Shown here: one piece after another, positions 1,708 to 32,098 of the stretch
How positions within the stretch are numbered: the stretch's first letter is position 1
Layout of the letters: each line of letters starts with the position of its first letter
DNA from: Rhizobiaceae bacterium
GTDB lineage: Bacteria; Pseudomonadota; Alphaproteobacteria; Rhizobiales; Rhizobiaceae
Reading direction: 5' to 3'
Assembly (NCBI GenBank): GCA_041749675.1
Contig: JBGTAU010000058.1
Coordinates: 1 to 39,208 of the forward strand
DNA length: 39,208 nt
Program-made: the position numbers and the translations under genes
The notes under the pieces: generated by a model
Databases searched by the model: none
What the model was told of the DNA's origin: nothing
Seen by the model: only the letters and a program-made list of their open reading frames with translations

Positions 1708-1733
1708 TCCCTCCAAACAGATTGGAAAATGAA

Positions 1734-2018: not shown

Positions 2019-2027
2019 GCTCAAGTT

Positions 2028-8883: not shown

Positions 8884-8986
8884 TCACCTTAAAATTTCGC
8901 CCGACTGAATAGTATAGAGTACGGCTCTGCTTTCGAAATTTGAGCCAACATTGCAAACGATGATGGCGCAATCGCAATTGGTCGAT

Positions 8987-9532: not shown

Positions 9533-9720
9533 GGCCCTGCTTGGCCACTGATTGACGGCATGTGCATGCCTTTCATATTCGACATCCCTTGTGTGCCGAA
9601 AACGAGATGGATTGCAAACACCCCCAAAAGAACGGCTGCGACCAGCGCCGACAATTTCACCCATTTTGGTGTTTTTGAGTTTTCCAGTGAATCAACCCTT
9701 TTATGGATTTCACGACTCAT
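9529..9720 (-). CDS. Small single-TM protein with a Met/His-rich C-terminal tail
   Basis: The ATG at 9720 gives MSREIHKR...WVKLSALVAAVLLGVFAIHLVFGTQGMSNMKGMHMPSISGQAGP. It is translationally coupled to the downstream membrane protein and divergent from the TetR gene. Confidence 0.45.
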   Translation of the reverse strand: MSREIHKRVDSLENSKTPKWVKLSALVAAVLLGVFAIHLVFGTQGMSNMKGMHMPSISGQAGP

Positions 9721-9828
9721 CGGTTGAAGCCCCAAAACTGGCAATTATTTATCAATACATTGTGTATATCAAAAAGTGAAGTGTGGTCAATCTCGACTTT
9801 AGTGCCTGACCACCTATGATAACGCGAT

Positions 9829-10395: not shown

Positions 10396-10492
10396 TACTC
10401 TCTATACAAAATGTGAATGTTTTTCTGGGAGACTGGCACGAAACTTGTTGGTCACATCGACAAGATAGTGTTCGACGCCGATTGGAACGTCA

Positions 10493-11515: not shown

Positions 11516-11563
11516 TACGACCTTTCTGACCGCCAGTATCTGAAAGGCTGGCAAAAAGCAGAG

Positions 11564-12523: not shown

Positions 12524-12767
12524 AAACTGCGAATCTCCCTTACTTCTAACGAGTTCAATTTCCGCGAAAAGCGTTGAAGAAATTACAATGTGCTGCGAGT
12601 TCCGCAGATCGCTTATTTTCGCCGTTTTTTTGCAGTCTGGCGCGCGAAGTCACGAATCGGGCGCTGACGATTATCAACTTTTTCATGTGTTCTTCCTTCG
12701 AAATAGAGCCAGTATTCTGGCGGATTGAAAAGAAAGTTTGTTGGCAAAGTCAGCCCATTTTGCTCAA

Positions 12768-15110: not shown

Positions 15111-15144
15111 TTGTGGAGCCTCCAGACATTCTTTCGCATAGACC

Positions 15145-15187
15145 CTATGGGGGTATAATCTCAAGTTGACAACTATACCCCCTATAG
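15145..15187. promoter_or_regulatory. Candidate CsoR operators in the copA-csoR divergent promoter region
   Basis: CTATGGGGGTATA (15145-15157) and CTATACCCCCTATAG (15173-15187) are G5/C5 tracts flanked by AT-rich inverted arms, the architecture known for CsoR/RcnR-family operators. Perfect TTGACA hexamers lie on the plus strand (15166-15171) and the minus strand (15198-15193), flanking the second site. Confidence 0.55.
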
Positions 15188-15200
15188 GTATCTGTCAATC

Positions 15201-15476
15201 ATGCAGATCGAAACCAAAACCGCAGTTAGGAAACGCTTCAACCGAATTGAAGGCCAAGTGCGCGGCCTGTCGCGCATGGTCGAGGAAGGGCGCTATTGCA
15301 TTGACATTGTGACGCAGATTTCTGCGGTGAGGGCTGCTCTGCGGCGGGCCGAGGAAGAAATCCTGCGCGATCATGTGGGTCATTGCGTCGAGCAAGCAAT
15401 AAATAGCGGCGACAAACACGACCAGCGCACGAAAATCACTGAGATCATCGACGTTTTGCGGCGCAGCGACAGATAG
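15201..15476 (+). CDS. csoR: CsoR-family copper-sensing transcriptional repressor
   Basis: 91 aa with RIEGQVRGLSRMVEEGRYCIDI...DHVGHC, which supplies the Cys-His-Cys Cu(I) ligand set of CsoR. Confidence 0.9.
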   Translation: MQIETKTAVRKRFNRIEGQVRGLSRMVEEGRYCIDIVTQISAVRAALRRAEEEILRDHVGHCVEQAINSGDKHDQRTKITEIIDVLRRSDR

Positions 15477-15491
15477 GCAGGAAGCGGCATT

Positions 15492-16031
15492 TTGGAAGAA
15501 GAAGCATCGATACCAACTGCAATCAAATATACGAAAACCGCACGTGCCCTGCATTGGGGGATGGCGTTGCCAATAATCGCGCTTCTGTTTTTCGGCGAAC
15601 ATACAATGGGCAGTCATAACGCCCGCTTCTTACCATCGCTGCATGCCAGCACGGGTGTTGTGGTCTTATTGCTTGTTAGTTTCAGATTGTTATGGCGCTG
15701 GAAGCATCGCCCGCCCATTCCAACGCGTGGATCGTGGTTCGAAACGAACGCAGCAAGATTTGCTCATTTCGCACTTTATGCCGCGATGGTGTTGATCCCG
15801 CTGTCAGGATGGCTCGCATACACCGAGCACGTGCGCCGCTCTATGGGTACGCGGCCTGCAAGTTGGTTCGGGCTTAGAATTCCACTTCTGCCTGACTTTG
15901 GCATTAACTGGCATATGATTCACAATTGGGGCGGCAAGCTAGCTTTGGCGATCATTGCTGTGCATGCCGCGGCGGCGTTTAAGCACCATTTCTTCAATCG
16001 CGATGACACGCTCAAGCGAATGTTACCCTAA
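15492..16031 (+). CDS. Cytochrome b561-family membrane protein
   Basis: A TTG start lies 15 nt after the csoR stop, with AGGAAG upstream. The ARALHWGMA motif and conserved His residues in four TM segments (LHW, FAHFALY, HAAAAFKHHF) are present. Confidence 0.75.
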   Translation: MEEEASIPTAIKYTKTARALHWGMALPIIALLFFGEHTMGSHNARFLPSLHASTGVVVLLLVSFRLLWRWKHRPPIPTRGSWFETNAARFAHFALYAAMVLIPLSGWLAYTEHVRRSMGTRPASWFGLRIPLLPDFGINWHMIHNWGGKLALAIIAVHAAAAFKHHFFNRDDTLKRMLP

Positions 16032-16383
16032 CCAGTCACGAGGCGAAATATAGAACTATATCGCCTTCGCATTTCAAACTGGAATTTACCTGGCACTACG
16101 GTACGGGAAGCATGCCCAATTGACTACATTGGCTCTTAGTTTTGCAAACGAAGTGGAACAATCGCATGCGCACTCATATCGGTCTGCGCGAAAGTCAAAC
16201 TCCACTTCGATCTCGATCTTTCCCGAGCACAGCCTTGAAAAGCGTCTTAGAAGAAACCCGCATTGATATTGCCTATTCCGTTTTTCAATACTCACAGTTT
16301 TTGCCAATTGATCATGGAACCCAACGGCTGAGTTCGAGTTTCGTGTTCAGGGATAATTTTGTCCTTCCTTGGAGGACCCCGCC

Positions 16384-16829
16384 ATGCCCAAATTTCTAAT
16401 AAGCGCAGCGCTGATTGTATTATTTCTTTCCGCCCCATCCAATGCCATGGAACACATGAAATGTGATGATGCTTCCATGATGAAGATGCAAACCGACATG
16501 GATGCAATGAACGATCCGGCAATGAAGGCAAACACATGGCCATGAAACAAATGGACATGGCCAAAACCTTGATGAAGGATAACAAACTGGACGATTGCTC
16601 CATGCATATGGGCATGGCGAGTATGAGCATGACCATGAAGTGCGACGATGAATCAATGACGAAGGTTCAGGCTGATATGGACGCCATGGCCGTTCCAGCT
16701 ATGAAGGCCAACAAAGATATGGCGTTGAAACACATGGGTCTGGCGAAGGCATCCATGAAGGACGGCAACGCCGATGAATGTATGATGCATATGGGCGAAG
16801 CGGTCGGAGCCATGAACAAGAAAATGTAA
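16384..16829 (+). pseudogene. Met/Cys-rich periplasmic tandem-repeat protein gene split by a frameshift near 16531-16536
   Basis: ATG 16384 follows a GGAGGA RBS and encodes a signal peptide plus repeat 1, stopping at 16543-16545 (53 aa, too short for the ORF track). The -1 frame continues as ORF 16536..16829. The two pieces together reconstruct two ~58-aa repeats of the form MKCDDxSMxKxQxDMDAMxxPAMKAN..MAxKxMxxAKxxMKD....[DE]CxMHMG. Confidence 0.5.
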
Positions 16830-16987: not shown

Positions 16988-17001
16988 TTGATTTCGATCA
17001 A
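16988..17001. promoter_or_regulatory. Perfect FNR/Anr/FixK-type box TTGAT-N4-ATCAA
   Basis: TTGATTTCGATCAA was read directly. It is intergenic, 256 bp upstream of the first gene (17257) of the long plus-strand gene chain. Confidence 0.5.
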
Positions 17002-17256: not shown

Positions 17257-17385
17257 ATGAACAATTTGACGGACGGAAATTCGATGATGTGGGGCATGGG
17301 ATGGGGCGGAGCGATTTTCGTTCTTATCCTGATCCTGTGCGTAGCGGCGCTTGCAAAATACCTGTTCTTCGACAAGCGGCAATAG
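17257..17385 (+). CDS. Small (42 aa) membrane protein with a Met/Gly/Trp-rich N-terminus
   Basis: ATG 17257 lies 6 nt after GGGGAG. The product is MNNLTDGNSMMWGMGWGGAIFVLILILCVAALAKYLFFDKRQ, with one TM segment. Confidence 0.5.
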   Translation: MNNLTDGNSMMWGMGWGGAIFVLILILCVAALAKYLFFDKRQ

Positions 17386-17402
17386 CAATCAAGGACAAAC
17401 GT

Positions 17403-17789
17403 ATGTCGTATTACATTTCAAAAATGCTTTCTGTGCCTTTCGAAGAGGCGGTGACCCGAGCAGCGGACGCATTGAAACTCGAGGGCTTTGGCATCCTCAC
17501 GGAGATTGACGTCAGCGCCACGCTGAAGAAGAAGATCGGCGTCGATTACCCGGCCTACAGGATCCTCGGCGCCTGCAATCCGGCATTGGCCCACGAAGCC
17601 TTAATGCTCGAAAACAAAGTCGGCACGATGTTGCCATGCAATGTCGTTGTCCGTGACGCGGGCAATGGCCAGACCGAAGTGGCTGCAATCGATCCTGTCG
17701 CTTCGATGCAGGCGATTGACAATTCGGCGCTGAAACAGGCCGCCGGGCAGGTTCGCGCGAAACTCGAAAAAGTCATCGCTGGGCTGTGA
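17403..17789 (+). CDS. DUF302 domain protein
   Basis: 128 aa. FGILTEIDVSATLKKKIGVDYPAYRILGACNP is the typical DUF302 core. Confidence 0.85.
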   Translation: MSYYISKMLSVPFEEAVTRAADALKLEGFGILTEIDVSATLKKKIGVDYPAYRILGACNPALAHEALMLENKVGTMLPCNVVVRDAGNGQTEVAAIDPVASMQAIDNSALKQAAGQVRAKLEKVIAGL

Positions 17790-17832
17790 TTGAAACTCAA
17801 AACAAAAAAGCATCAATCCAACGGAGTTCGCC

Positions 17833-19236
17833 ATGCTTCTCAATAGCCAATCGTTCACAATGCCAAGCCGCCGGTCCTTCCTCAAGACATCCGCAGGAGT
17901 GTGCGGCGCTCTCATTGCCGGAACTCCGTGGACGTCTGCCTCGGCGGCTGCGCCCGTCCTTTCCGTTGCCTCCCGCACGCTCGAGGTGAACAAGAAGGCA
18001 GCAACAGTCTTCAGCGTGCTTGGATCAAATGGCAAGCCTGGCATGGTTATGCGCGAGGGAGATCGCTTTCTGGGTGATCTTCTCAATGCCTCGGGCGAAC
18101 CGCTGCAGATGCATTGGCACGGGCAGGTTAAAGCGCCCGCCAACCAGGATCGCGCACGACCAGATGGCGGCGCGCTAGCTGTCGGACTGACCGACGCCCA
18201 TGACTTTGAACTGACCCCCGGCACCCATTGGATGCATTCCCACAGTCTCAGCGAGCAACAGCTTCTGGCGGCGCCGATGGTTGCCCGCGAAAAAGATGCA
18301 GGCGACGTTCAGGACGTTGTCATAATGCTGCATGATTTCGCTTTCCGGTCGCCGCAGGAAATTTTGGCGGAACTTGGCGCTGGAGGCGGTGCGCATGCCG
18401 GTCAGGGCGCTGGAGGCGGCATGATGGGTATGACCCATGCCAATGATGTCAAATATGACGCCTTTCTCGCCAACGATCGGACCCTTGATGATCCCGAAAT
18501 TGTCTCGGTTGAAAAAGGCGGCCGCGTCCGCCTGCGCATCATCAACGGCGGCACGGCGACGGCGTTCTTCATTTCGACGCCGGGATTGAACTCAAGCTGC
18601 GTCGCCGTTGACGGCTCGTCTTGCCAGCCCGTCTCACATAACGCCTATCCGATGGCACAGGGGCAGCGCATCGATCTTTTGGTCGACATCCCGCAACAAG
18701 GCGGAGCATTCCCGGTCCTGGCGCAAGTCGAGGGCGACCTGTCGGTGACCGGCATCATGCTGGCGACAGCTGGCGCATCGATCGCCAAACTCTTGGCCAC
18801 CGCCGTTGCGCCACAGCCATTGACCGATCTTGCGTTTGAGTCGCAGCTTCGCGCCGCAAACCCGTTGGCGGAGAAAACCGCGGACCAATCTTTCATGGTC
18901 ATGCTGGGCGAAGAGCCGGGGTATCGTTGGACGATCAATGGCCGCGCCCATGGGGAGCATCAGCCCTTCGATGTACGCCAAGGCGAGCGGATCGAGATGA
19001 CATTCATGAACCCGACCACAATGATGCATCCCATGCATTTGCACGGGCATCATTTCCAGATCGTCGCCATTGGCGGACAACGGATTCTAGGCGCCATGCG
19101 CGACACCATCATCGTCCCCGCCCACAACCCGGTCACCATTGCCTTCGATGCAAATCAAAAGGGTGCGTGGTTCCTGCATTGCCATCACCTCTATCACATG
19201 GCGAGCGGCATGATGACGGAAGTGCGCATCAGTTGA
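17833..19236 (+). CDS. Tat-exported multicopper oxidase
   Basis: Twin-arginine signal (SRRSFLKTSAGVCGALIAG). Copper motifs HWHG, HWMHSH, HPMHLHGHHF and HCHHLYHMASGMM are present. Confidence 0.9.
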   Translation: MLLNSQSFTMPSRRSFLKTSAGVCGALIAGTPWTSASAAAPVLSVASRTLEVNKKAATVFSVLGSNGKPGMVMREGDRFLGDLLNASGEPLQMHWHGQVKAPANQDRARPDGGALAVGLTDAHDFELTPGTHWMHSHSLSEQQLLAAPMVAREKDAGDVQDVVIMLHDFAFRSPQEILAELGAGGGAHAGQGAGGGMMGMTHANDVKYDAFLANDRTLDDPEIVSVEKGGRVRLRIINGGTATAFFISTPGLNSSCVAVDGSSCQPVSHNAYPMAQGQRIDLLVDIPQQGGAFPVLAQVEGDLSVTGIMLATAGASIAKLLATAVAPQPLTDLAFESQLRAANPLAEKTADQSFMVMLGEEPGYRWTINGRAHGEHQPFDVRQGERIEMTFMNPTTMMHPMHLHGHHFQIVAIGGQRILGAMRDTIIVPAHNPVTIAFDANQKGAWFLHCHHLYHMASGMMTEVRIS

Positions 19237-19688
19237 ACACGGAGCGGCACTGGCTGGGTGCGCTGAGGATTTATCTCGGATTCACTATCGCTTTGCATTT
19301 GTTCTGGGAAGTCGCACAGCTGCCGCTCTACACGATCTGGAACGCGGGGTCGCCGCAGGAGATTGTATTCGCAGTGTTTCATTGCACCGTTGGCGATCTG
19401 ATGATCGCCACGCTGTCACTGGTGTTGGCGCTTGTCTGTTTCGGCGCTCCCGCGTGGCCGCGCGAGCGGTTCATCCCGGTGATGGTGGTCACGCTCGCGA
19501 CCGGCATCGCCTATACCGTCTACAGCGAATGGCTGAACACCGCCGTCCGCAAGACTTGGGCCTATTCTGAGATCATGCCAACGCTCCCGCCGCTCGGGAC
19601 GGGACTGGGTCCGCTGCTGCAATGGGTCGTCGTGCCGATGGTCGGCTTCGCGTTGCTGCAGCATTGGGTCAGGCGATCACAATCATGA
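19233..19688 (+). CDS. Integral membrane protein of unknown function
   Basis: Four predicted TM segments begin at WLGALRIYLGFTIALHLFW. The only start upstream of TM1 and outside the oxidase gene is TTG 19233, which overlaps the oxidase stop (TTGA). The start codon is uncertain. Confidence 0.55.
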   Translation: MNTERHWLGALRIYLGFTIALHLFWEVAQLPLYTIWNAGSPQEIVFAVFHCTVGDLMIATLSLVLALVCFGAPAWPRERFIPVMVVTLATGIAYTVYSEWLNTAVRKTWAYSEIMPTLPPLGTGLGPLLQWVVVPMVGFALLQHWVRRSQS

Positions 19689-20995
19689 CCGGCACGGACA
19701 GTGAACTTGAGCAGCTACAGCGCGAATCCTTTGCGTATTTCATTCACGAAGCCAATCCCGCAAACGGGCTGATCATTGACAAGACTGCGCCAGACTGGCC
19801 CGCCAGCATTGCCGCCACCGGACTGGCGCTCGCCGCCTATCCGGTCAGCGTCGAGCGTGGATTTTGGACGCGCAGCGCGGCCGTCGAGCGCACGTTAGCG
19901 ACTTTGCGCTTTTTCTGGAACAGCCCGCAGGGGCCGGAACCGGATGCGACTGGCTATATGGGATTCTACTATCACTTCCTCGACATGCAGACCGGGCGGC
20001 GCGCGTGGGACTGCGAACTGTCGACCATTGACAGCACCTTCCTGCTGGCCGGCGCCTTGGCGGCAGGAGCTTATTTTGATGGAGAAAATGCTGAAGAGAA
20101 GGAAATCCGCGCCCTCGCCGAAGCGCTCTATCGTCGGGCCGATTGGGCCTGGGCGCAGAATGGCAAGGCCACGGTCACGCATGGCTGGCGACCCGGAAAA
20201 GGTTTCATCAGATACCGGTGGCAAGGCTATGACGAAGCTTTATTGCTCTATGTTCTGGGTCTTGGCTCTCCCACCCATCCTTTGCCGCAGGTGAGCTATG
20301 ATGCGTGGCTGTCCACTTATCGCTGGGAAAGCCGCTATGGGTATGAATACCTCTATGCGGGGCCGCTGTTCACACACCAGCTCTCCCACGTCTGGATCGA
20401 TTTTCGCGGCATCCAAGACGCGTTCATGCGGGACAAGGGCATCGATTACTTCGAGAACAGCAAGCGCGCGACCTATGTGCAGCAGCGCTACGCCATCGAA
20501 AATCCGCGCAAGTTCGCAGGCTATGGAGAGCATTGCTGGGGGATCACGGCCAGCGAGGGGCCAGGGCCTGAAACGCGCAAGTTAGAGAGCGTTAGACGCA
20601 GATTTTTCGACTACCTTGGACGAGGCGTTCCCTATGGCCCTGATGACGGCACGCTGGCGCCGTGGGCCGTCGTCGCCTCTTTGCCGTTCGCACCCGAGAT
20701 TGTTTTGCCCGCGATCAGCTATTGCATTCATCAAGCCAGACTGAATGAAGCGAGCGCCTATGGCTTCAAGGCCGCGTTCAATCCGACGCATCCGGGCGAG
20801 CCGGGCAATACTTTCGGCTGGTGGGTGTCGCCATGGCACTTCGGGCTCAACATCGGTCCGACCGTCTTGATGATCGAAAATTACAGCAGCGGCCTCTTAT
20901 GGCGGTTGATGCGCGATTGCCCCTACATCCAGTCCGGGCTGCGACGCGCGGGATTCACTGGAGGATGGCTGACTGAGAAAACGACAGGAGGTTGA
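19685..20995 (+). CDS. 'Glucoamylase family' protein (PF10091 / GH144 beta-1,2-glucanase-like)
   Basis: ATG 19685 overlaps the upstream stop (ATGA). The stretch ESFAYFIHEANPANGLIIDKT...DWPASIAATGLALAAYPVSVERGF...GFYYHFLDMQTGRR...STIDSTFLLAGAL matches my memory of this family. No signal peptide is visible. Confidence 0.65.
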   Translation: MTGTDSELEQLQRESFAYFIHEANPANGLIIDKTAPDWPASIAATGLALAAYPVSVERGFWTRSAAVERTLATLRFFWNSPQGPEPDATGYMGFYYHFLDMQTGRRAWDCELSTIDSTFLLAGALAAGAYFDGENAEEKEIRALAEALYRRADWAWAQNGKATVTHGWRPGKGFIRYRWQGYDEALLLYVLGLGSPTHPLPQVSYDAWLSTYRWESRYGYEYLYAGPLFTHQLSHVWIDFRGIQDAFMRDKGIDYFENSKRATYVQQRYAIENPRKFAGYGEHCWGITASEGPGPETRKLESVRRRFFDYLGRGVPYGPDDGTLAPWAVVASLPFAPEIVLPAISYCIHQARLNEASAYGFKAAFNPTHPGEPGNTFGWWVSPWHFGLNIGPTVLMIENYSSGLLWRLMRDCPYIQSGLRRAGFTGGWLTEKTTGG

Positions 20996-21432
20996 ACATG
21001 AAATCACAACGCATTGCATCGGCGGCGCTGGCCTTGGGCGGCGTGATCTTGATGGGCATGGGACTCTATTTCGGCTTTCTGCGGCCGCCGCTGCTCCCGG
21101 AGGACTTGAATTACATGGGCGCGTCCATGGCGCAGATTCAAGCTGCCATTCCCGGATTGGGGCCATGGCTCGCCCGCGTTTTCGGCGTGCTCGGCGGCTT
21201 CATGTTCGCCACCGGTCTGCTCACTGTCTATGTTGCGGCCGTGGGTTTCAGGACCGGACGGCTTGGGCTGATCGCTGTGGTTTCGGTTTCAGGATTGGCG
21301 TCGATTGGCTGGATGGTATTCACCAACTTCGTGATCGACTCTGATTTCAAATGGCTGCTGCTTGCTTTCACGCTGCCTTGGATGGTGGCGCTGACGCTCG
21401 CCTTACCGCAATCTTGGAGGACAACCACATGA
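20992..21432 (+). CDS. Integral membrane protein of unknown function (four TM segments)
   Basis: ATGA overlaps occur at both ends (20992 and 21429). The sequence is hydrophobic throughout. Confidence 0.6.
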
Positions 21433-22463
21433 AAATTGGCATCATCGGACTGGGCCGTATGGGCGGCGGAATCGCGCGCCGTCTGATGCAAGCCGGACAC
21501 CAATGTGTGGTGTTCGACAGGGACGCAGGCATAGGCGCCGTTCTCGCGAAAGAGGGCGCCACCACCGCCGGCTCGCTGGAAGAGGTGGTAAGCGCGCTGG
21601 GCGAAAGGCCGCGCGCCGTTTGGGTGATGCTGCCCGCAGGAGCCATCACTGAAGAAATAGTTGAGAGGCTAGGCGGTCTGTTGAACAGGGACGACATCAT
21701 CATCGATGGTGGAAATACTTTCTACAAAGACGACATCCGGCGCGCGCGGACACTGGCTGCGCAGGGCATACGCTATCTGGATTGCGGCACATCAGGCGGC
21801 ATCTGGGGCCTTGAGCGCGGTTATTGCATGATGATCGGCGGAGCAAAGGATGCCGTGGATTATCTGGACCCCGTGTTTGCGGCACTTGCACCGGGCCTAA
21901 GCGATATTGCGCGCACACCCGGTCGCAATAACGACGATCCGCGCGCCGAGCGCGGTTACATTCACGCAGGGCCCCCGGGCGCGGGGCACTTCGTCAAGAT
22001 GGTGCATAACGGCATCGAATACGGTCTGATGCAGGCCTATGCCGAAGGCTTCGACATCCTGCGCAACAAGGACTCGAAGGACTTGCCGGAAGACGAGCGC
22101 TTCGATCTCGATTTGCCGGACATCGCCGAGGTGTGGCGGCGCGGCAGCGTTGTGTCATCTTGGCTGCTTGATCTTGGCGCTGCGGCGCTGGCCAAGGATC
22201 CGCAGCTGGAAGAGTTTTCCGGCTTCGTGACAGATTCTGGCGAGGGCCGCTGGACCATCGAGGCGGCCATCGAAGAGGCGGTTCCGGCCGATGTGCTGTC
22301 CACCGCCCTCTACGCCCGCTTCCGTTCGCGCCAACAGCATACATTCGCCGAAAAACTGCTGTCGGCGATGCGTTTTGGCTTTGGCGGTCATGTTGAAAAG
22401 CACCAGACGAACACCCCTCTTGGCCCGCTCAACAAGAAAGGTGACACCGGTGAAATCCGCTAA
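21429..22463 (+). CDS. gnd: 6-phosphogluconate dehydrogenase, decarboxylating (short form)
   Basis: Rossmann N-terminus [19 protein letters not shown], then [21 protein letters not shown] and [24 protein letters not shown]. Confidence 0.9.
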
Positions 22464-23649
22464 CCCACGCATCCTGACTATCAACGGCGGCTCATCGAGC
22501 ATCAAGTTCGCGTTGTTCGAGACGGGTGAGGCGGTGACTCGGATAATGGGCGGCGCCATTGAGCGGATTGGGTCGCCGGAGGCCAGCTTGCGGGTGAAAG
22601 GCACGAAACCGGCCGACAATTTTTCGAGGCCGGTAGCCGCTCCCGATCACATGGCGGCAATCGGCGCTCTGATGGAGTGGCTGGAGAAGATTGACGGTGG
22701 CGCCGCCGTGACCGCAGTGGGACACCGCGTCGTGCATGGCGGGCCACACTATTTTGAGCCGCAGCGCATCACCCCGCAGATGATGGATAGTCTGCGCTCG
22801 CTGATGCCATTCTCTCCCCAGCATCTGCCGCAGGAAATTCTGCTGGCCGAGGCGATTGGCCGCCGGTTTCCGGAACTTCCGCAGGTGGCGTGTTTCGACA
22901 CCGCCTTTCACCGCGAAATGCCGCGCGTTGCCCGGCAGTTGCCGATTCCGCGCCGCTATGAAGCGCTGGGGGTGCGCAGGTATGGGTTTCATGGTCTGTC
23001 CTTTGCGTTTCTCATGAGCGAACTTGCGAGCCAGGCAGGAGCGGAGGCAGCACAGGGCAGGGTCATTCTCGCCCATCTTGGCAACGGCGCGAGCTTAGCT
23101 GCGGTGCGCAACGGCAGGTCTGTGGATACAAGCATGGGGTTCACGCCAGCGTCCGGATTGGCGATGGGCACCCGATGCGGCGACATCGATCCCGGCCTCA
23201 TTTCGTACCTTGCGCGCACGGAAAAGATGAGCGCGCAGCAATTCGACGACATGGCCAATACTCAGTCCGGTCTCTTGGGGCTTTCGGAAACCAGCTCCGA
23301 CATGCGTGAATTACTTTCCCTTGAAACGCAGGACGTGCGCGCGGAAGAGGCGGTTGCGCTGTTTTGCTATCAGGCCAGGAAATGGATCGGCGCCTTCGCC
23401 GCCGCGCTCGGCGGAGTTGACCAGCTGGTGTTTGCCGGCGGCGTTGGCGAGAACTCCCCCGTGATTCGAGCGCGGATCTGTGACGCGCTGGGTTTCCTGG
23501 GGATGGAATTGGACCAGCAGCGCAACTTGGCGAACGCGCCGCTGATTTCAGCGGAGGGCGGTCGTGTTGGCATTCGCGTCATACGCACCGACGAAGAACT
23601 GATGATCGCAAGGTCGGTCATCGGCGTCCTCGGTCTTGGGCCTGCTTGA
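22450..23649 (+). CDS. ackA: Acetate kinase
   Basis: [38 protein letters not shown] and GGVGENS are present. The start is probably GTG 22450 (AAAGG sits 9 nt upstream) or GTG 22441. Either one overlaps the gnd stop. Confidence 0.9.
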
Positions 23650-23761
23650 TTATACACTAGAATCTGCCTGTCCCCTTGGCAGTTGTTGGCACCAAGTTCG
23701 AGGCGGCAAAAGAGAAAGTCCCCCGCGTCGCCACGCGCCGCAACCCGGCTTCGCCCGCCAT

Positions 23762-25030
23762 TCAAATTGCGAACACAGGCGCGAACCCGCCGCCCGGCGT
23801 TCTGAAATTGGTGGTTTGGCCCTGATAAATCCGCGCCGCCGTCAATAAATCCTGGCCAGCGTAAGTGTAAAGCCTGATATCCATCTTGCGCTGCACGGGT
23901 GCACCATCAAGCTTGATCATGCGCTGGCCCGGTGCCGCGAAGGCTTGTGCCACATATCCGCCACCCGCAATATCAACCCATACGCCTTTTGTCACCTTGT
24001 CGCCGCGATAAACAGCCTTGCCGCCATGGCCAGATAGGGGCTTGAAGAACAGGTTCTTTCGGTCAGCCCACATCGCATTTGCGATATCAGGCGTGACCAA
24101 TGTGGTTTTCGGAATGCCTGCCAGCCTTGTCCGCAACTCGTCGGACAAGCCAGCCGCCCTCAGCCAGATTTGATCAGACAGCAAAGTCAGATTTCGTTTG
24201 GCAGCGTAGATGGCGTGATTGTGCGGATTTGGCGTGACCACAACCGCGCCGTCCCGGTAGGCCGCGGCGAGCGCGGAATGATTGGGGTCAGCCAATGAAA
24301 AATCGACGAGCCTATTGTAGACGAGATCGATCTCCTGTCCGTCGAGAAGGAGTTTGCCCGCTTCATATGCGAGCGCTGCTGCATCGCCAATCACAGCGTC
24401 GATGCCTTGTCTGCGCAATAGCTGCCGCGCCAGAATGAATTCTGGATAGAGATATTGTTCCTTCGGCTGGTCATCGATAATCGCCACGCGGCGCGGCCGA
24501 TCCGTGCCACGCTGGAGCCGCCATTCGGCAGTGAACACATTGAGCGCCTGCGTCTCGAAGTCTGCTGCCTGCATCGCCATGAGCCCGCGTTCGATTTCGC
24601 TGCAACAGGCTTTCTGGGCCTTGGCAAGTAAGGCGTTGATGAAGGCGCCGCCGGCATTGGTGTTCACTTCGATCAGCCTCGGACCACTGTCATCGAGATG
24701 GAAATCATAGCCCATGAATGCCCCAAGCGGGCCAAAATCCTTTTGTGCCGATTCCGGCGCCCACGCGAGGACAGCATTTCGGTAGGCGGGCAATCTTACT
24801 GCCTCCTCAATGGCCCCGACGATGCCGCGCATTTGGGCGATATCGTCCGACGAGAGAAACACCAGCACGTTGGACAAAAGGTTTGGCCTGCTTTCAAGCT
24901 GCTCGACGTTGAATGCCCGATCATCCACCGCGCGACCGACAGTGTCCGCCAGCAGTTTGCGGTCAAGCGTTGTGCAAAGGCAGCGCTGGTTGAGACGGTC
25001 AGAGACTTCGGGCTGTCCGGTTTCTGGCAT
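23762..25030 (-). CDS. Circularly permuted ATP-grasp-like protein, function unknown
   Basis: The Mg/ATP-site-like motif GYDFHLDDSGPRLIEVNTNAGG precedes the nucleotide-loop-like FFKPLSGHGGKAVYRG. This order is reversed relative to classical ATP-grasp enzymes. Confidence 0.45.
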   Translation of the reverse strand: MPETGQPEVSDRLNQRCLCTTLDRKLLADTVGRAVDDRAFNVEQLESRPNLLSNVLVFLSSDDIAQMRGIVGAIEEAVRLPAYRNAVLAWAPESAQKDFGPLGAFMGYDFHLDDSGPRLIEVNTNAGGAFINALLAKAQKACCSEIERGLMAMQAADFETQALNVFTAEWRLQRGTDRPRRVAIIDDQPKEQYLYPEFILARQLLRRQGIDAVIGDAAALAYEAGKLLLDGQEIDLVYNRLVDFSLADPNHSALAAAYRDGAVVVTPNPHNHAIYAAKRNLTLLSDQIWLRAAGLSDELRTRLAGIPKTTLVTPDIANAMWADRKNLFFKPLSGHGGKAVYRGDKVTKGVWVDIAGGGYVAQAFAAPGQRMIKLDGAPVQRKMDIRLYTYAGQDLLTAARIYQGQTTNFRTPGGGFAPVFAI

Positions 25031-25032
25031 GA

Positions 25033-25647
25033 TTATGGCCCAGTCGTTTCATCAGGTCGCGCATTCCATAGCATGATTGCGGGTTCAACTGCGCGTTGAT
25101 GCCCGTAGCCCAGAATGCTGACTGTCGCCGTGTCGAGCAGAAAATGCGATGCCTGTTCAATCTCCAATCCTATCCACCGCGCCGCCAGGACGCAGCCGAA
25201 GTGGCCGTGCGAGAAGATGACGATATTGCCGTCAAGAGCCCGGAGCCGCGCGATTATTCGGTCAGCCCGTAATGAAACCTGCGTTGGCGATTCACCGCCC
25301 GGGCAGCCGTGTTGATAGATGTTCCAGTCTGGTTTGATCGCACGGATTTCAGCGCTGCGCAGGCCTTCGTATTCGCCATGGTCCCACTCCACGAGATCAG
25401 GTTCGATTTCTGCAGGCATGGCGAGCCCTGCCAAATCGGCTGTTTGCCGTGCGCGTTGTAGCGGGCTGACGAGCACCCGTTTGAAAACAGGGGTGCGCAG
25501 TCGTTCATGCAATGTGCGGGCTTCCGCTTCGCCCTCTGCGGTCAAGGGAATGTCAGTCCGACCTGTATGCTGGCCGGAAAGTGACCACGCAGTTTGTCCG
25601 TGTCGGATCAGAAAGATACGCTGGAGCAACGGCGGGGAACTAAGCAT
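25033..25647 (-). CDS. Histidine phosphatase (phosphoglycerate mutase-like) family protein
   Basis: The ATG at 25647 gives [22 protein letters not shown]..., which contains the RHG catalytic motif, with FSHGHF later in the sequence. The start overlaps the xfp stop by 8 nt. Confidence 0.8.
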
Positions 25648-28021
25648 GTGCTGGCCACTGCCAATCCCGGATTTCTGGCATATCTTCTCCGTGTTCGGCG
25701 ATGTAGCGTTTATGCTCAGCAAGTTTTTCGTGGACGGCCTGTTTGACTTGACCCGCGACGGCATGAAGATGCGGCACGCGGGCTATGGCGTTGGCCATGA
25801 GATGAAAGCGGTCAAGATCGTTCATCACCACTTGGTCGAACGGCGTGCTCGTGGTGCCTTCTTCCTTGTAGCCGTGCAAATGAAAATTCCCGTGGTTTTT
25901 GCGGCGATATGTGAGCCGGTGAATGAGCGCCGGATAGCCATGGTAGGCAAAGATGACCGGTTTATCGACAGTGAAGAGTTCGTCAAAGTCCGCATCACTC
26001 AGACCATGCGGATGGTCGCTCTGCGACTGCAGCTTCATCAGGTCGACGACATTGACCACGCGGACTTTCAAATCGGGGAATTGTGACCGCAAGAGATCAA
26101 CGGCGGCCATTGTTTCGAGCGTCGGAACGTCACCACAGCACGCCATCACGACGTCCGGCTCGCCGCCGCCGTCGCTGCCAGCCCACTGCCAAATCCCGAT
26201 TCCGGCAGAACAGTGTTCTATGGCGGCGTCCATGTCGAGCCACTGCGGAGAGGGCTGCTTGCCGGCAATGACGACATTCACGTAATTGCGGCTGCGCAGG
26301 CAATGGTCGGTCACCGACAGCAGCGTATTCGCATCAGGCGGCAGATAGACGCGGATGACTTCGGCCTTTTTGTTGACGACGTGGTCAATGAAGCCCGGGT
26401 CCTGGTGGGTAAAGCCGTTATGGTCCTGACGCCAGACATGCGACGTGAGCAGGTAATTCAGTGAAGCGATGGGCCGCCGCCATGGAATATTACGCGTGAC
26501 CTTCAGCCACTTGGCGTGCTGGTTGAACATCGAATCGATGATGTGGATGAACGCCTCATAACAGGGAAAGAAGCCATGGCGGCCGGTGAGCAGATAGCCT
26601 TCCAGCCATCCCTCGCATTGGTGCTCGCTCAGCATTTCCATGACCCTGCCGTCGGGAGCCACGTGGTCGTCGAAGTCAAAAATCTCTGCGGTCGAGCAGC
26701 GGTCGGTGACCTCGAAAACGGCGCCCCAGCGGTTCGAGGTCGTTTCATCCGGGCTGAAGACGCGGAAATTGTTCGGATTGTGCTTGATCACATCGCGTAT
26801 GAATTGCCCCTGCACGCGGGTGGCCTCGGCGCTCACCGCTCCGGGCGTTGGCACATCGATTGCGTAACTGGCAAAATCGGGCAGATGCAGATCCTGCAGC
26901 AGCAGGCCGCCATTGGCATGCGGATTGGCGCTCATGCGGCGCTTACCCTTTGGAGCCAAGTCCGAAAGTTCGGCGCGGAACCGGCCCGCATCATCGAACA
27001 GCTCCTCCGGCCGGTAGCTCTTCATCCAGCTTTCCAGCAACGCCAAATGCCCCGGCTTGTCCATTTCGCCCATGGGCACCTGATGCGAGCGGAACGTACC
27101 CTCTGTCGGCTTGCCGTCAACCACTTTCGGGCCGGTCCAGCCCTTGGGCGAGCGCAGAATGATCATGGGCCAGAGCGGCCGCGTCTTGAACCCGTTGACG
27201 CGGGCGTCGCATTGGATGTTCCCTATTTCTGTCACCACGGTGTCCAGCGTCGCGGCCATGAGCTGGTGCATCGCCATCGGGTCGCTGCCCTCGACGAAAT
27301 GCGGTTTGTAGCCAAGCCCACGAAACAGCGCTTCCAGCTCGTTGTGTGGGATTCGCGCCAAAACGGTCGGCCCAGCGATCTTGTAACCATTCAGATGCAG
27401 GATGGGCAGCACTGCGCCGTCATGCACCGGATTGAGAAACTTGTTGGAGTGCCAGCTCGTAGCCAGCGCGCCGGTTTCGGCTTCGCCATCGCCGACAACG
27501 CAGGCGACGATGAGGTCCGGATTGTCGAAGGCCGCTCCATAGGCGTGCGAGAGCGCATATCCCAGTTCGCCGCCCTCATGAATGGAACCTGGCGTTTCGG
27601 GCGCGACATGGCTCGGAATACCGCCCGGAAACGAGAACTGCTTGAACAGCCGTTTCAGCCCGTCTTCGTCTCGCGAAATCCCGGGATAGACCTCGCTGTA
27701 GGTGCTCTCCAGATAGGCGTTCGCCACCAGCCCCGGCCCTCCATGACCTGGCCCAATGATATTGATCACATTAAGGTCATATGCCGTGATGACCCGGTTC
27801 AAATGGGCATAAATAAAATTGAGTCCTGGCGTGGTGCCCCAATGGCCGAGCAAACGCGGCTTGATATGCGCCAGCGTGAGTGGCTCCTTCAGCAGCGCAT
27901 TGTCATAGAGATAAATCTGCCCGACCGAGAGGTAGTTCGCCGCCCGCCAATAGGCATCCAGCTTTTGCAGCGACTCGGGAATGAGGGTGTTTAAGTCTGG
28001 TTTATGTTTCAAAATATTCAC
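25640..28021 (-). CDS. xfp: Xylulose-5-phosphate/fructose-6-phosphate phosphoketolase
   Basis: [36 protein letters not shown] and [16 protein letters not shown] are present. The probable GTG start at 28021 overlaps the SRPBCC stop (GTGA) and gives 793 aa, typical for Xfp. The longer track ORF extends into the upstream gene. Confidence 0.93.
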
Positions 28022-28566
28022 CCTCGGTTTTGGAAATGCGTTGCCGCTTCGTTGGTCATACGTTGGGTGCACCAGCGGGCGTAAATGTTGCCGAACAGAT
28101 AGCCGAGCCAATAAGAAATGGCACCGTTTGGCAGCGCGTAATCGATGAACACACGCAGATGCGAAGTGCGGGCTCTTGGGGTGATCTCGAAACCCATGCG
28201 GTAAGAGCCGATGACGACCAGTTGCGGCCTGCCTATCGTGCTCCAAACCTTGCGCAAGGGAGGGTTGCGTTCGATGACAATTTCCTCGACTGACAGCGGG
28301 ATGCCCAACACGCGGCCCCGCAAGCTGATTTTTGCACCTACAGCGAGGCCGTTCGAGGCATCGAATTCGAGCGTCATGACCGAACCCGCCATCATCCAAG
28401 ATGGTTTGGTCATGTGAGCCGACAAGCGACTGTGATCATCCAAAAGTGTGAACACGGCATCCGCCGACGCGTTCAACTCAACATCGCTTTCGAAATGAAA
28501 GGGTAACAAGGGGTCAACCTCAGACGTTGCACTGAGCGGTAAGCCCGTCGTGGCAGGCGTCATCAT
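28018..28566 (-). CDS. SRPBCC (START/polyketide cyclase-like) family protein
   Basis: 182 aa with a beta-rich profile and a C-terminal helix ([22 protein letters not shown]). The start overlaps the ATPase stop (ATGA at 28566-28563). Confidence 0.55.
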
Positions 28567-31007
28567 GCCGACGCCATCGCGGGATTGAGCGCTGGGGTTG
28601 GCTTGGACGCGTTTTGAACCTTGATACCAGTCAGCCTGGTCCGCTTCAGCATCAGGGCATTGATGGCAACGAGCGCCGAACTGCCCGACATTGCAATGGC
28701 CGCAATGGTCGGGCTAAGCAGGAACGGATACAGCACACCGGCGGCCAGCGGAAAGGCGATGACGTTGTAGCCGACCGCCCACCAGAGGTTCTGATGCATT
28801 TTTCTGAGTGTCGCGCGCGACAGCTCAACGGCGCCGACCACGTCGAACGGATCGCTCTTCATCAGCACGATGTCGGCGCTTTCCATCGCCACATCGGTGC
28901 CGGCACCGATTGCAAAGCCAACATCGGCTTGGGTCAGGGCCGGTGCGTCGTTGACGCCATCGCCAACCATGCCGACTTTTTTGCCCTGCGCTTGGAGTTC
29001 CTTGACCTTGCTCGCCTTGTCGCCGGGCAGAACGTCAGCGAAAACGCGGTAGATCCCAACGCTCTTGGCAATGCGCTCCGCCGTGGCCTGATTGTCTCCG
29101 CTCAGCATGATGACTTCGACGCCGCGCGCGCGCAGCGCTTTGACCGCTTCAACTGCAGACGGCCTGATGGCATCGGCGATGGCTATTAACCCCAAGAGCT
29201 TGCCGCCCAGTGCCAGATGAACGACGGTACGTCCTGCACCCTGCAATTCGGCGGCTTTCGCACCAAACTTGCCGAGGTCGATCTTGTTTTCGGTCATCAA
29301 ACGCTTGTTACCGAGCAATGCGGTTTTGCCGCCGATCTTGGCTTCAGCACCCTTGCCTTCGAGATTCTTGAATGATGTTGCCTTGGTCACCTTCATATCT
29401 GCCGCCCGGCGCAGGATCGCTTGTGCGAGGGGATGATCTGATCCCGCATCGACCGATGCGGCCGCGGCCAAAAGCTGGTTTTCGGTGGTGCCGGTTGCCA
29501 CCACCAATTCCACCACTTCGGGCTGGCCCATAGTGAGCGTTCCGGTCTTGTCGAAGATAATGACGTTGAGCTTTGTGGCGTCCTCAAGTGCTGATGCATT
29601 TTTGAACAGGATGCCGTTCTGCGCACCAAGACCGGTTCCGACCATGATGGCCATCGGCGTTGCCAGCCCAAGCGCATCGGGGCAGGCGATGACAAAAACA
29701 GTGATCGTAAGGCTGATTGCGAACAGCAAGGTTTCGCCGATCCACCAATACCAAACCGCAAAGGTGAGGAGGCCGGTCACGACGGCGGCCAGCACCAGCC
29801 ATTGCGCGGCGCGATCCGCCAAGAGTTGCGACGGCGCTTTTGAGTTCTGTGCTTCCTGAACGAGTTTGACGATCTGGGCGAGTGCTGTGTCAGCACCAAC
29901 CTTGGTGGCGCGATACTGGAAGGTGCCGCTCTTGTTGATCGTCGCGCCAATCACCGTGTCGCCGGTTTTCTTGGCAACTGGCATGGACTCGCCGGTCAGC
30001 ATGGACTGGTCGACCTGGGATTCTCCCTCCAGAACGGTGCCATCGACCGGAATTTTGTTTCCCGGCCGGATCACGACAATATCGCCGGACACGATCTCGG
30101 CGGTCGGCACTTCCAGTTCCTTGCCGTCGCGCAGCACGGTTGCTTTTGGCGGGGCCAGATCCATGAGGGCGCGGATAGCTGCCGATGCGCCTGCTCTTGC
30201 CCGCATTTCGAGCCAGTGTCCGAGCAGGATGAAGACCAGCAGGATGGCAGACGCTTCATAGAACTGTTGGCCGCCATAAATAAAGGTAGAGCCCACGCTG
30301 AACAGATATCCCGTGCCGACGCTGAGGACGACGAGCACAGCCATATTGGCGACTCCGCTGCGTATCGCGCGGGCGGCCGCGACAACAAAGGGCCAGACCG
30401 GATAGAGGATCGCTGCGCTGGCCAGAATGAACAGCACGACATCGAGGCGCAGCTCGAACGGCGGCTGAATTTGAATGAAGTCCATGCCCATCGGCGAGAG
30501 GGCGAAGATCGGCAGGCTGAAGCCGAGTGCGATCCAGAACCGGTTGCGCATGTCCCGCGCCATCGCTTGCATGTCCATGCCAGCGCCGTGGCCCATTTCG
30601 TGCGCGATGGCGTCGCTCTTTTCGCCGCCATGAGCCTTGTGTTCGACTTTCGCGGCAGTTGGTTTGGCGGCAGGCGAATTCGTCTCTAAGCCGGCTTTAT
30701 GCACATGAGAGTGTTTGGACTTGGCAGGGATGTTCGGGGCCGTCGGCAGAGATTTGTCCGGTGTCGCGTGGTCTGCGCAAACATGTTTGGGCAACGCCTC
30801 GCCCGCGCAATGGAAGCCGCATGCTTCGACTGCGGCTTTGAGTGCAGGGATGGAGGTCTTGGCCTTGTCATAAGTGACCGTTGCCGATCCGGAGACCGGA
30901 TTCACCGACACACGCCCCACGCCTGCAATATGCTGAAGCTGTTTTTCAATTCCCCGGGCACCAAGGATTGATAACAGGCCGCCGACTTCAAGTGTGCTGG
31001 TAGTCAT
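28563..31007 (-). CDS. P1B-type heavy-metal ATPase with a non-canonical CPD transmembrane motif
   Basis: [15 protein letters not shown]6YNX4P ([14 protein letters not shown]) and PX6MSGSS are all present. TM4 reads [12 protein letters not shown] (codons at 29676-29684, Asp = GAT). The N-terminal HMA-like fold lacks CxxC ([11 protein letters not shown]). A His/Met-rich linker follows ([10 protein letters not shown]...VEHKAHGG...[15 protein letters not shown]). Confidence 0.9.
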
Positions 31008-31327
31008 GTCCGGGCCGCAAAAAAATTATAAATCGGGCCAAATACCAATGACACGTACCAGCCCCAGCCGAAGCTCTCAATCAGCCCCAAGAAGAAGTCC
31101 GGCCAGCTCAGCAACGTAAATCCGGGTAGAAAAATTGACAATGCAGAATGTTCAATGGGCAGGCCCGGAAAAAACAAATATCCAAGCACGCAGAGCACAT
31201 AGGTTATGGCAAAAGACACGCTCAACCCCATCCCCAACGCAAATACCGGGATCAGATGTGCAGTGTGCAATGGGAGGCGCAACCCTTCTCTGACAACGGA
31301 AATCGGTCGATTAGTGCTTGTGTTCAT
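31004..31327 (-). CDS. DUF5676-like small membrane protein
   Basis: ATG at 31327 (MNTSTNRP...). Three TM segments, ending ...[20 protein letters not shown]. The stop overlaps the ATPase start (ATGA). The family name is from memory. Confidence 0.55.
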
Positions 31328-31523
31328 TGACCTGCTCCATATTTTTTGGCGAGTTTGCTGCACCTTCTGCTGATGACTGCGGCGAGGCCCTCACGGAATC
31401 GGCTTCATTCCCACTTTTGTCGCGGCGGCTGTGCCGATGTCCTATGACATGCGCCCCGCAGCCAAACCGCATCATCAGAAAGATGAAAGCGCCCCAGATT
31501 AGAAAATACATGAGCATCTGCAT
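31311..31523 (-). CDS. DUF2933-like small membrane protein with a Cys/His motif
   Basis: MQMLMYFLIWGAFIFLMMRFGCGAHVIGHRHSRRD... is one TM segment followed by a GCGxH..GHxH motif, and the protein ends in HKH. It overlaps the next gene by 17 nt. Confidence 0.55.
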   Translation of the reverse strand: MQMLMYFLIWGAFIFLMMRFGCGAHVIGHRHSRRDKSGNEADSVRASPQSSAEGAANSPKNMEQVNEHKH

Positions 31524-32098
31524 GGGTAGGCTACCCTTCTAGTCAGGTCCGCTAGCAGGGTTGCATTCGCCCGGCCTGCCACACCACTATCGTCAACGCG
31601 CCATCTCGGATTAAGTTCCATCTGCAACGTCCGTCTAAGAGGAATGGCTCGACACTTTCAGCATCGAACAATCGGCTATTCAAAATCACGGGAAAGGGCA
31701 CAACGATGATGTGAATTGACAACGATTTTCAAAAGCTTGAGAAGGTGACACGGTCTATATCCCGTGAGACAACGCTTCATCGGCAAATAATCAACTGGCG
31801 GAATTGCACCTTAGAAAGAAGAACAAAGGACTAAGCCCCGGCATGCAGGGGTTTTGCCTTCGGCCGTTACTACGGCGCTCTATAATGGCGCGTTCCGGCC
31901 TCGGGCAGCGCGAACCAAGTTCGCGCCAAGCAAGAACGATCGTCACCCGAAAGGGCGCAGACTTCACCTATGAAGGCTGCGTTCGCAACGCGAATAGAGC
32001 GTGTCCGCAACGCGGCTTGCCCCATCATCCTCGTCAATCATTTTGTAGCACCAAAGTCGAGTTTCGGTTATTGTTTCACTAAAAAACGGGAGAAGTTT

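Follow-up and report, generated by a model that had tools for sequence, protein, structure and literature searches.

A candidate low-oxygen survival module joining metal-handling and phosphoketolase-pathway genes in a Rhizobiaceae metal(loid) island

Why would genes for handling metals share tightly packed gene chains with enzymes that convert sugar phosphates to acetyl-phosphate and ATP? The question is raised by a 39,208-nucleotide stretch of a Rhizobiaceae bacterium (contig JBGTAU010000058.1 of assembly GCA_041749675.1, positions 1 to 39,208; hereafter, the window), in which two convergent chains combine a multicopper oxidase (MCO) and a P1B-type ATPase with 6-phosphogluconate dehydrogenase (gnd), phosphoketolase (xfp) and acetate kinase (ackA). 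Weighing gene content, a conserved regulatory box and related loci, we lean towards reading this block as a low-oxygen (FixK/FNR-type) survival module, made of two convergent operons drawn from a gene set that turns up repeatedly, mostly on plasmids or islands. The pairing recurs mostly beside a low-oxygen regulator site, which points to a variant of known low-oxygen loci rather than a chance junction.

Two compact convergent gene chains

A preliminary description of this DNA named fifteen open reading frames (ORFs), all of which were present at the positions given there according to the sequence, Pfam and NCBIfam:

17257-17385, plus strand: sTM, single-pass membrane protein of 42 amino acids (aa), from the ORF and its translation; a 42-aa gene lies at the same place in the related locus L085
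17403-17789, plus strand: DUF302 protein, 128 aa from ATG 17403 (PF03625, 87 bits)
17833-19236, plus strand: three-domain, Tat-exported MCO (Cu-oxidase, Cu-oxidase_2 and Cu-oxidase_3 with a TAT signal)
19233-19688, plus strand: TMa, polytopic membrane protein of 151 aa with no family assignment, its TTG start overlapping the MCO stop
19685-20995, plus strand: GH144-family beta-1,2-glucanase homologue (PF10091, 270 bits)
20998-21432, plus strand: TMb, polytopic membrane protein of 144 aa with no family assignment (GGAGG 6 nt before ATG 20998)
21429-22463, plus strand: gnd, short-type decarboxylating 6-phosphogluconate dehydrogenase (TIGR00872, NF007161, PF03446 and PF00393)
22450-23649, plus strand: ackA, acetate/propionate kinase with a GTG start (PF00871, 387 bits; TIGR00016, 379 bits versus a cutoff of 293)
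31523-31311, minus strand: membrane ORF of 70 aa with a GCGAHVIGHRH motif, head of the minus chain
31327-31004, minus strand: DUF5676 two-transmembrane protein, 107 aa from ATG 31327 (PF18926, 37 bits versus a cutoff of 27.6)
31007-28563, minus strand: P1B ATPase of the CPD subtype (Pfam and NCBIfam; motifs in alignment)
28566-28018, minus strand: SRPBCC-like protein (Polyketide_cyc2, 23 bits, below cutoff)
28021-25640, minus strand: xfp, xylulose-5-phosphate/fructose-6-phosphate phosphoketolase of 793 aa (XFP_N, XFP and XFP_C domains)
25647-25033, minus strand: HisPhos, histidine phosphatase superfamily, branch 1 (PF00300, 159 bits)
25030-23762, minus strand: ATP-grasp ligase with a predicted glutathione-synthetase/glutathionylspermidine-synthetase fold (alignment, AlphaFold2 model and Foldseek)

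Read base by base, the plus chain overlaps as TTGA at 19233, ATGA at 19685 and 21429, and over 14 nt between gnd and ackA (22450-22463). The minus chain overlaps by 17 nt (31311-31327), ATGA (31004-31007), ATGA (28563-28566), GTGA (28018-28021) and 8 nt (25640-25647), followed by a 2-nt gap (25031-25032). Every junction position in the preliminary description agrees with this reading, but the four bases at 20992 are TTGA rather than ATGA; ATG 20998 is the likelier start of TMb and leaves a 2-nt gap. The spacers of 17 nt (sTM/DUF302) and 43 nt (DUF302/MCO) are as that description implied, the DUF302 start having been picked by comparison with the 128-aa homologues of loci L085 and L087. The 4-nt start/stop overlaps of the plus chain are kept in L085. 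The earlier view of each chain as a compact unit, probably transcribed as one, is supported. Overlaps of this kind are common in operons and make co-transcription the default assumption.

Internal promoters or terminators had been proposed as grounds for refuting this linkage. No significant signal was found: promoter-like and terminator-like consensus matches inside the chains were at shuffle level (7 versus 7.0 and 16 versus 17.4, respectively), so that internal signals are neither backed nor refuted by these generic scans. The 112-nt gap between the convergent chains contained no significant hairpin (z = 0.58). An FNR-like site at the 3' end of the MCO gene (19145-19158, one mismatch) was rejected as an internal promoter, being at chance level and not kept in L085. 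A sigma-70-like site (10/12; 31054-31025, minus strand) inside the DUF5676 gene, just 5' of the ATPase start, is likewise at chance level.

Most of the identities first assigned to these genes hold, including Gnd, Xfp, AckA and GH144 (Pfam/NCBIfam and similarity to the characterised enzyme XcSGL). The DUF2933 label of the 70-aa head ORF does not, as Pfam gave no match for this ORF even at E ≤ 10, and BLASTP found it unlike two annotated DUF2933 proteins. The MCO is, by its sequence, a three-domain Tat-exported type of a subfamily other than CopA/PcoA (TIGR01480, 154 bits versus a cutoff of 479), and its closest solved structures are bacterial laccase-like MCOs. Homologues of TMa adjoin MCO or P1B ATPase genes at other loci. 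The SRPBCC-like protein is 52% identical to a Sinorhizobium meliloti pSymA protein annotated as SRPBCC and placed after CopA3-DUF2933, and xfp shows 70-89% identity to homologues in loci L001, L003 and L004.

A conserved FNR/FixK-type box precedes the plus chain

We scanned for the FNR/FixK consensus TTGAT-N4-ATCAA, which revealed a single zero-mismatch match in the 39-kb window:

16988-17001, palindromic, no strand assigned: perfect FNR/FixK-type box TTGATTTCGATCAA, 256 bp 5' of the first plus-chain gene

In L085 the same box is found 255 bp 5' of the homologue of the 42-aa gene, within the most conserved part of an intergenic spacer that is otherwise 79% identical. Perfect boxes also occur 5' of a small-ORF/DUF5676/ABC1-kinase/SRPBCC/xfp/ackA chain in a Methylocapsa metagenome-assembled genome (MAG; L011) and 5' of ATP-grasp-xfp on the Sinorhizobium plasmid pSinB (L088), and a one-mismatch box lies in the divergent promoter of CBS-xfp and CopA3-DUF2933-SRPBCC on S. 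meliloti pSymA. A 719-aa ORF in L011 was considered as a second ATPase and rejected, since Pfam identifies it as the ABC1 kinase.

Across two independently anchored locus sets (160 related loci), the box occurred 19 times per 1.30 Mb and 24 times per 1.08 Mb, while each of 19 composition-matched control palindromes occurred 0-2 times. The box is therefore at least 10-fold commoner than matched controls, the background here being those controls and not whole genomes. In L015 and L017 (10328-10341), the conserved peptide LIEIN (TTG ATC GAG ATC AAC) of the ATP-grasp protein yields perfect 'FNR boxes', a trap for motif counting. The gene xfp itself is a predicted or observed FixK or microoxia target in alphaproteobacteria (PMC2908626, PMC3050613, PMC6515984).

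The linkage recurs as a flexible gene set

Metal and carbon genes recur together in other genomes as a flexible set and not in a fixed order. The preliminary description had called for a synteny check; the adjacency does recur elsewhere, but its exact order is not fixed even in close relatives. This recurrence speaks against a chance mosaic junction unique to this strain. In L085, the closest relative with a long contig (ATP-grasp protein 92% identical), the whole plus chain follows a cytochrome b561 gene and the FNR box as sTM-DUF302-MCO-TMa-GH144-TMb-gnd-ackA, and the facing chain reads DUF6629-xfp-HisPhos-ATP-grasp, without the ATPase. Locus L001 has ATPase-SRPBCC-xfp-HisPhos-ATP-grasp facing MCO-TMa-x-GH144-TMb, without gnd-ackA, and L087 has xfp-ATP-grasp facing DUF302-MCO-HK-ackA, in which a histidine kinase gene (HK) lies between MCO and ackA.

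Other families show other arrangements. A Caulobacteraceae MAG (L058) carries ackA, a class I fructose-bisphosphate aldolase gene (FBA), xfp, HisPhos, SRPBCC and the ATPase on one strand; Nitrobacter hamburgensis plasmid 2 carries ackA-glk-GH65/betaPGM-HAD-glycosidase-xfp-HisPhos beside MFS-ATPase; and on Bradyrhizobium BTAi1 plasmid pBBta01 a glycosidase and the ATPase belong to a single unit, close to PPK2 and a probable ATP-grasp gene. That the association reappears with differing orders, carbon enzymes (xfp, glycosidase, GAPDH-like and FBA) and families argues for selection. Loci with xfp and no metal genes also exist, including Variovorax (with universal stress proteins, USPs), Ancylobacter and a Methylophaga operon leading from glycogen to acetyl-phosphate. 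No paper on a linkage between CPD-type ATPases and phosphoketolase was found in the literature searched, which included SMa1084/1087 and the Nitrobacter phosphoketolase.

On the BTAi1 plasmid (L173, 11941-15535), the glycosidase gene lies 23 nt 5' of the CPD ATPase. PPK2 and YflT-type general-stress proteins recur beside CPD ATPase and ATP-grasp genes, which fits a stress or energy-reserve theme; PPK2 or YflT-type genes lie at:

L011, 8671-9459
L173, 18005-18796
L011, 7856-8551
L085, 3589-4161

The ATPase belongs to the CPD (P1B-3a) subtype

The preliminary description counted the ATPase and the oxidase as copper-handling genes. The Tat-exported MCO is present, but the ATPase belongs to an uncharacterised subtype, and copper as its ion is an assumption. 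By its sequence motifs, namely CPD in transmembrane segment (TM) 6, YN(X)4P in TM7 and MSGSS in TM8 (AMSGSS in the alignment), it is a CPD or P1B-3a ATPase, a subtype defined from three proteins of Xanthobacter, N. hamburgensis and Bradyrhizobium (Cubillas et al. 2017, PMC5552934). Its gene shares ~80% nucleotide identity with those on N. hamburgensis plasmid 2 and pBBta01. Its N-terminal, HMA-like domain contains no Cys and leads into a linker with some ten His and several Met residues. TIGR01511, a generic Cu-ATPase model, scores above its cutoff, which does not establish specificity.

All 80 loci returned by a scan of metagenomes were CPD-type (66-86% identity), and the 45 loci of at least 12 kb were used for counts. 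A sugar or acetyl-phosphate gene was found within 10 kb in 13 of the 45 (xfp in 5, ackA in 4, GH144 in 2 and GH65/betaPGM in 4), with an ATP-grasp gene in 10/45 and an MCO in 9/45. In the genome sample anchored on the ATP-grasp gene, carbon genes occurred at 4/7 CPD loci versus 0/20 loci with CPC ATPases only (Fisher p ~0.01 for carbon-gene presence at CPD versus all other loci). L101 has an FNR box ahead of a GAPDH-like gene, a CPD ATPase and an MFS gene, and in L100, L102 and L107 (ocean samples included) the box lies at the same distance 5' of the CPD ATPase; these operons span:

L100, L101, L102 and L107, about 8770-13700: CPD-ATPase operons

In a wider reading, CPD ATPases would be widespread low-oxygen-induced transporters hard-wired to substrate-level ATP production, and not conventional copper-detoxification pumps; their genes would share FNR-box operons, time and again, with those for phosphoketolase, acetate kinase, a glycosidase or a GAPDH-like enzyme. 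Together with the glutathione-synthetase-like ligase and the MCO they would then form an unrecognised, fermentation-powered system of anoxic metal homeostasis, and the Cys-to-Asp change might shift the ion that is pumped. We offer this wider proposal tentatively and regard it as possible but doubtful.

The ATP-grasp ligase travels with metal genes and the histidine phosphatase with xfp

The ATP-grasp protein belongs to a very large, uncharacterised family (at least 8,000 matches) whose alignment shows invariant Cys pairs (C17, C19, C142 and C143). Sequence-only searches were near noise, with a weak ATP-grasp match. The AlphaFold2 model is of moderate confidence (pLDDT 70, pTM 0.74), and its top Foldseek matches are glutathione and homoglutathione synthetases (E ~1e-14, TM-score 0.55-0.59, 13-14% identity), with glutathionylspermidine synthetase and eukaryotic-type glutathione synthetases also among the fold matches. 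The model suggests a thiol or peptide ligase resembling glutathione synthetase. Among 80 loci sampled at one genome per species, a P1B ATPase lay within 10 kb of the ATP-grasp gene in 30, some gene of the metal set in 45 and xfp in 4. Small copper plasmids from Psychrobacter and Moraxella also carry the gene, beside copAB and tatABC. Its usual company is thus metal genes rather than xfp, and we do not regard it as part of the sugar route.

The HisPhos gene adjoins xfp in L001, L085, L058 and plasmids of Nitrobacter and Methylophaga, thus in both alpha- and gammaproteobacteria. Two of the loci with this neighbourhood are:

L058, 2559-6788: HisPhos and xfp as neighbours
L092, 9182-13388: HisPhos and xfp as neighbours

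In L058, the class I fructose-bisphosphate aldolase gene is inserted between ackA and xfp. Given the xfp neighbourhood and this aldolase, HisPhos may act on sedoheptulose or fructose bisphosphate within a phosphoketolase cycle that rearranges carbon.

A coherent but locally incomplete route from sugar phosphate to ATP

The core of a phosphoketolase pathway is present in the two chains, with a full three-domain Xfp, an acetate kinase and a decarboxylating 6-phosphogluconate dehydrogenase. The order proposed in the preliminary description, from Gnd through Xfp to AckA (pentose phosphate to acetyl-phosphate to ATP), is biochemically coherent as predicted from these gene identities, but the Pfam-scanned window ORFs include no zwf, pgl, rpe or glucose-releasing enzyme. 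The route is therefore locally incomplete and would be supplied from elsewhere in the genome. Gnd passes both TIGR00872 (gnd_rel, an NAD-dependent equivalog; 390 bits versus a cutoff of 297) and NF007161 ('NADP-dependent phosphogluconate dehydrogenase'; 471 bits versus a cutoff of 271); the NADP-named model outscores the NAD model, which makes either cofactor assignment tentative. The GH144 protein matches 8XUL (XCC2207/XcSGL) at E = 4e-120, in an alignment that begins at XcSGL residue 49, and CpSGL 5GZH at E = 4e-43. XcSGL is a characterised GH144 beta-1,2-glucanase of Xanthomonas (PMC12102758). An exact-protein look-up of the GH144 ORF with a longer start returned no match. If the low-oxygen reading is right, beta-1,2-glucan may serve as an internal energy reserve.

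The block lies within a metal(loid) island

The whole window is a metal(loid) island. The two-chain block (17.2-31.5 kb) lies between a cus/copA cluster and aioXSR-aioBA, the latter directly flanking the minus chain:

1-16829: copper/silver island ahead of the two chains, with a partial MCO, cytochrome c, YtkA/FixH-like-cusB-cusA, a CPC-type ATPase, cytochrome b561 and a small protein
12768-15164: second P1B ATPase of the window (CPC motif, YHS and HMBD domains), close to S. meliloti CopA3
16536-16829: Met/His-rich protein of 97 aa
31970-38935, plus strand: complete aio (arsenite oxidase) cluster of aioX (phosphonate-binding-type), aioS, aioR (sigma-54 activator), aioB and aioA

Composition is even across the block (GC ~0.58-0.62; GC at third codon positions, GC3, ~0.65-0.77, with HisPhos at 0.59), 'metal' genes passing into 'carbon' genes without a seam, and the aio genes have lower GC3 (0.51-0.61). 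Rfam found neither a riboswitch nor a small RNA in the window, and megablast against plasmids returned single-gene matches only, with no syntenic record.

Proposed mechanism and competing explanations

In the mechanism that we infer, a drop in oxygen would lead a CRP/FNR-family activator encoded elsewhere to bind 16988-17001 and switch on the chain from sTM to ackA. GH144 would open beta-1,2-glucan, Gnd would convert 6-phosphogluconate to ribulose-5-phosphate, Xfp of the facing operon would cleave pentose or hexose phosphate to acetyl-phosphate, and AckA would yield ATP by substrate-level phosphorylation. The same transcripts would encode the CPD pump, the periplasmic MCO, small membrane proteins and the glutathione-synthetase-like ligase, so that, we propose, metal and thiol homeostasis or cuproprotein supply could be maintained when respiration and exporters driven by the proton-motive force are weak. 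If this is right, strictly respiratory soil and water bacteria of metal-rich sites would outlive oxygen loss by coupling fermentative ATP to metal handling on the same mRNA, and the locus would provide a first physiological context for CPD-type P1B ATPases, the Cys-rich glutathione-synthetase-like ligase and their TMa, TMb and SRPBCC partners.

The low-oxygen role raised in the preliminary description gains from the conserved box 5' of the plus chain and from the FixK literature on xfp, but it is not matched by the minus chain. The 446 bp 5' of that chain (31524-31969) contained no FNR-like box with up to two mismatches, the relative L001 likewise has none, and no CRP/FNR regulator gene was found among the window ORFs scanned by Pfam. 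Several further points weigh against this reading. At 256 bp from the first start, the box is rather distant for a class II promoter of the simple kind, genomes of such bacteria contain perfect FNR boxes fairly often, and 2 of the 19 boxes counted in related loci are coding coincidences in the LIEIN motif of the ATP-grasp protein. On the carbon side, the GH144 N-terminus has no evident signal peptide and rhizobial cyclic glucans are mainly periplasmic, while zwf, pgl, rpe and a beta-glucosidase or phosphorylase were not among the Pfam-scanned window ORFs. An inverted-repeat search 5' of the minus chain returned short palindromes only and no recognisable operator; a TGGCAG...TGCA stretch there was rejected as a sigma-54 site, its spacing being wrong by eye.

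Three other explanations start from the same genes. Repeated recombination could have compacted metal and carbon cassettes on islands, so that they are transferred together without functioning together. The fluid order in close relatives (L085 without the ATPase-SRPBCC head, L001 without gnd-ackA and L087 with a histidine kinase) fits such packaging, as do contexts rich in insertion sequence elements and plasmid genes and the absence of a carbon gene within 10 kb of most ATP-grasp and most CPD-ATPase loci. We nevertheless consider it unlikely, because the association reappears with different orders and carbon enzymes in different families, is specific to CPD and not CPC ATPases, and comes with uniform composition across junctions and conserved start/stop overlaps. 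The carbon route could instead be a metal(loid)-proof bypass that keeps ATP and C2 units in supply under Cu or As(III) stress: Cu inactivates Fe-S dehydratases (Edd and aconitase) and arsenite blocks lipoamide enzymes (pyruvate dehydrogenase), and the path from 6-phosphogluconate through Gnd, Xfp and AckA needs neither. That Gnd and the Fe-S enzyme Edd share a substrate is established biochemistry, and its relevance here is our inference. The position between cusBA/copA and aioXSR-aioBA agrees with this idea, and xfp repeatedly accompanies metal genes on plasmids that confer metal resistance: pSinB, which comes from a gold mine, Nitrobacter plasmid 2 and the BTAi1 plasmid. However, no metal-responsive regulator (MerR/CueR, CsoR or ArsR) or operator was found beside either chain, where the one clear site is FNR-type; many xfp-ackA loci carry USP, hemerythrin or glycogen genes in place of metal genes; and no paper on induction of xfp by Cu or As was found in the literature searched. 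A bypass of this kind thus appears improbable.

The remaining explanation is cuproprotein maturation, in which an ATPase acting like CopA3 or FixI would deliver Cu to the MCO or to periplasmic cuproenzymes under microoxia, and the carbon genes would be mere fellows in a regulon. Several neighbourhoods favour it: CopA3-DUF2933-SRPBCC is divergent from CBS-xfp on S. meliloti pSymA, nirK and cytochrome c genes lie close by on pSinB, and MCO and CPD ATPase occur together in the 9 of 45 long metagenome loci noted above. CopA3 reportedly has a non-detoxifying role and is regulated by redox stress, which would also favour such delivery. The CPD ATPase of the window, however, is not of the CopA3 type (CPC and HMBD), which is represented instead by the ATPase at 12768-15164. 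Its CPD motif puts Asp in place of the Cu(I)-binding Cys or His, its HMA-like domain has no CxxC, and MCO and ATPase are on separate transcripts, all of which make this the least probable of the explanations considered and, in our view, a very unlikely one. The low-oxygen survival module remains the reading that we favour, with the reservations given above.

Comparison with known systems

The FixK/FnrN regulon has predicted or observed members that include phosphoketolase, CBS-domain proteins, cytochrome c, alcohol dehydrogenase and a P1B ATPase (PMC2908626, PMC3050613, PMC6515984). The window resembles it in having the TTGAT-N4-ATCAA box 5' of the plus chain, as homologous chains at other loci also do. 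In that regulon, however, xfp stands as a gene of its own and the P1B ATPase, FixI/CcoI, belongs to the cbb3 oxidase cluster, whereas here xfp is joined with a CPD ATPase in one chain and gnd-ackA with an MCO in the other, the minus chain has no box and no regulator gene lies nearby.

The lxa locus of Burkholderia cenocepacia is described in PMC3721108 as containing an Anr/FNR-type motif and genes for acetate kinase, phosphate acetyltransferase, cytochrome b561 and a cation ATPase, and as needed for the anoxic persistence of an aerobe. It is similarly an accessory locus sharing ackA, a P-type or cation ATPase and cytochrome b561 with the window, along with the Anr/FNR-type motif. The preliminary description had suggested that it combines xfp, ackA and a cation ATPase; the latter two appear in the text of PMC3721108, but no phosphoketolase is listed there, and no multicopper oxidase, GH144 or gnd is reported. 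The lxa locus also differs in comprising, per the same text, ~50 genes dominated by USPs, PHA genes, pta and ribonucleotide reductase (nrd); none of its hallmarks (USP, PHA, pta, nrd and CRP-family genes) was found among the Pfam-scanned window ORFs.

The P1B-3a subtype (PMC5552934) shares the CPD, YN(X)4P and MSGSS motifs with the window ATPase, although it is described as His-poor and the linker of the window protein is rich in His and Met. That paper is a classification and gives no substrate, regulation or link to sugar or acetyl-phosphate genes. The CopA3 (SMa1087) region of pSymA comes close in having a P1B ATPase, a small membrane protein and the 52% identical SRPBCC protein beside a phosphoketolase (70% identical); an FNR-like site lies in the promoter region that they share, and USP genes are close by. 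Unlike the CPD ATPase, CopA3 is a CPC/HMBD pump, as is the other ATPase of the window; xfp is divergent there and not co-operonic, and the region has no MCO-GH144-gnd-ackA chain.

Phosphoketolase operons offer the nearest parallel for the carbon genes. The Methylophaga plasmid operon glgX-pgm-pgi-tkt-glgP-ackA-xfp-HisPhos has xfp, ackA, HisPhos and a glucan-degrading entry enzyme in common with the window, and the heterolactic and bifid-shunt operons likewise obtain ATP from acetyl-phosphate. Here, by contrast, the entry polymer is probably beta-1,2-glucan and not glycogen, oxidative entry would proceed via a short gnd_rel-type Gnd, and the two operons also carry metal genes. What would distinguish this locus from all of these systems, as predicted from its gene order, is the placing of substrate-level ATP production and ATP-driven metal handling on shared transcripts.

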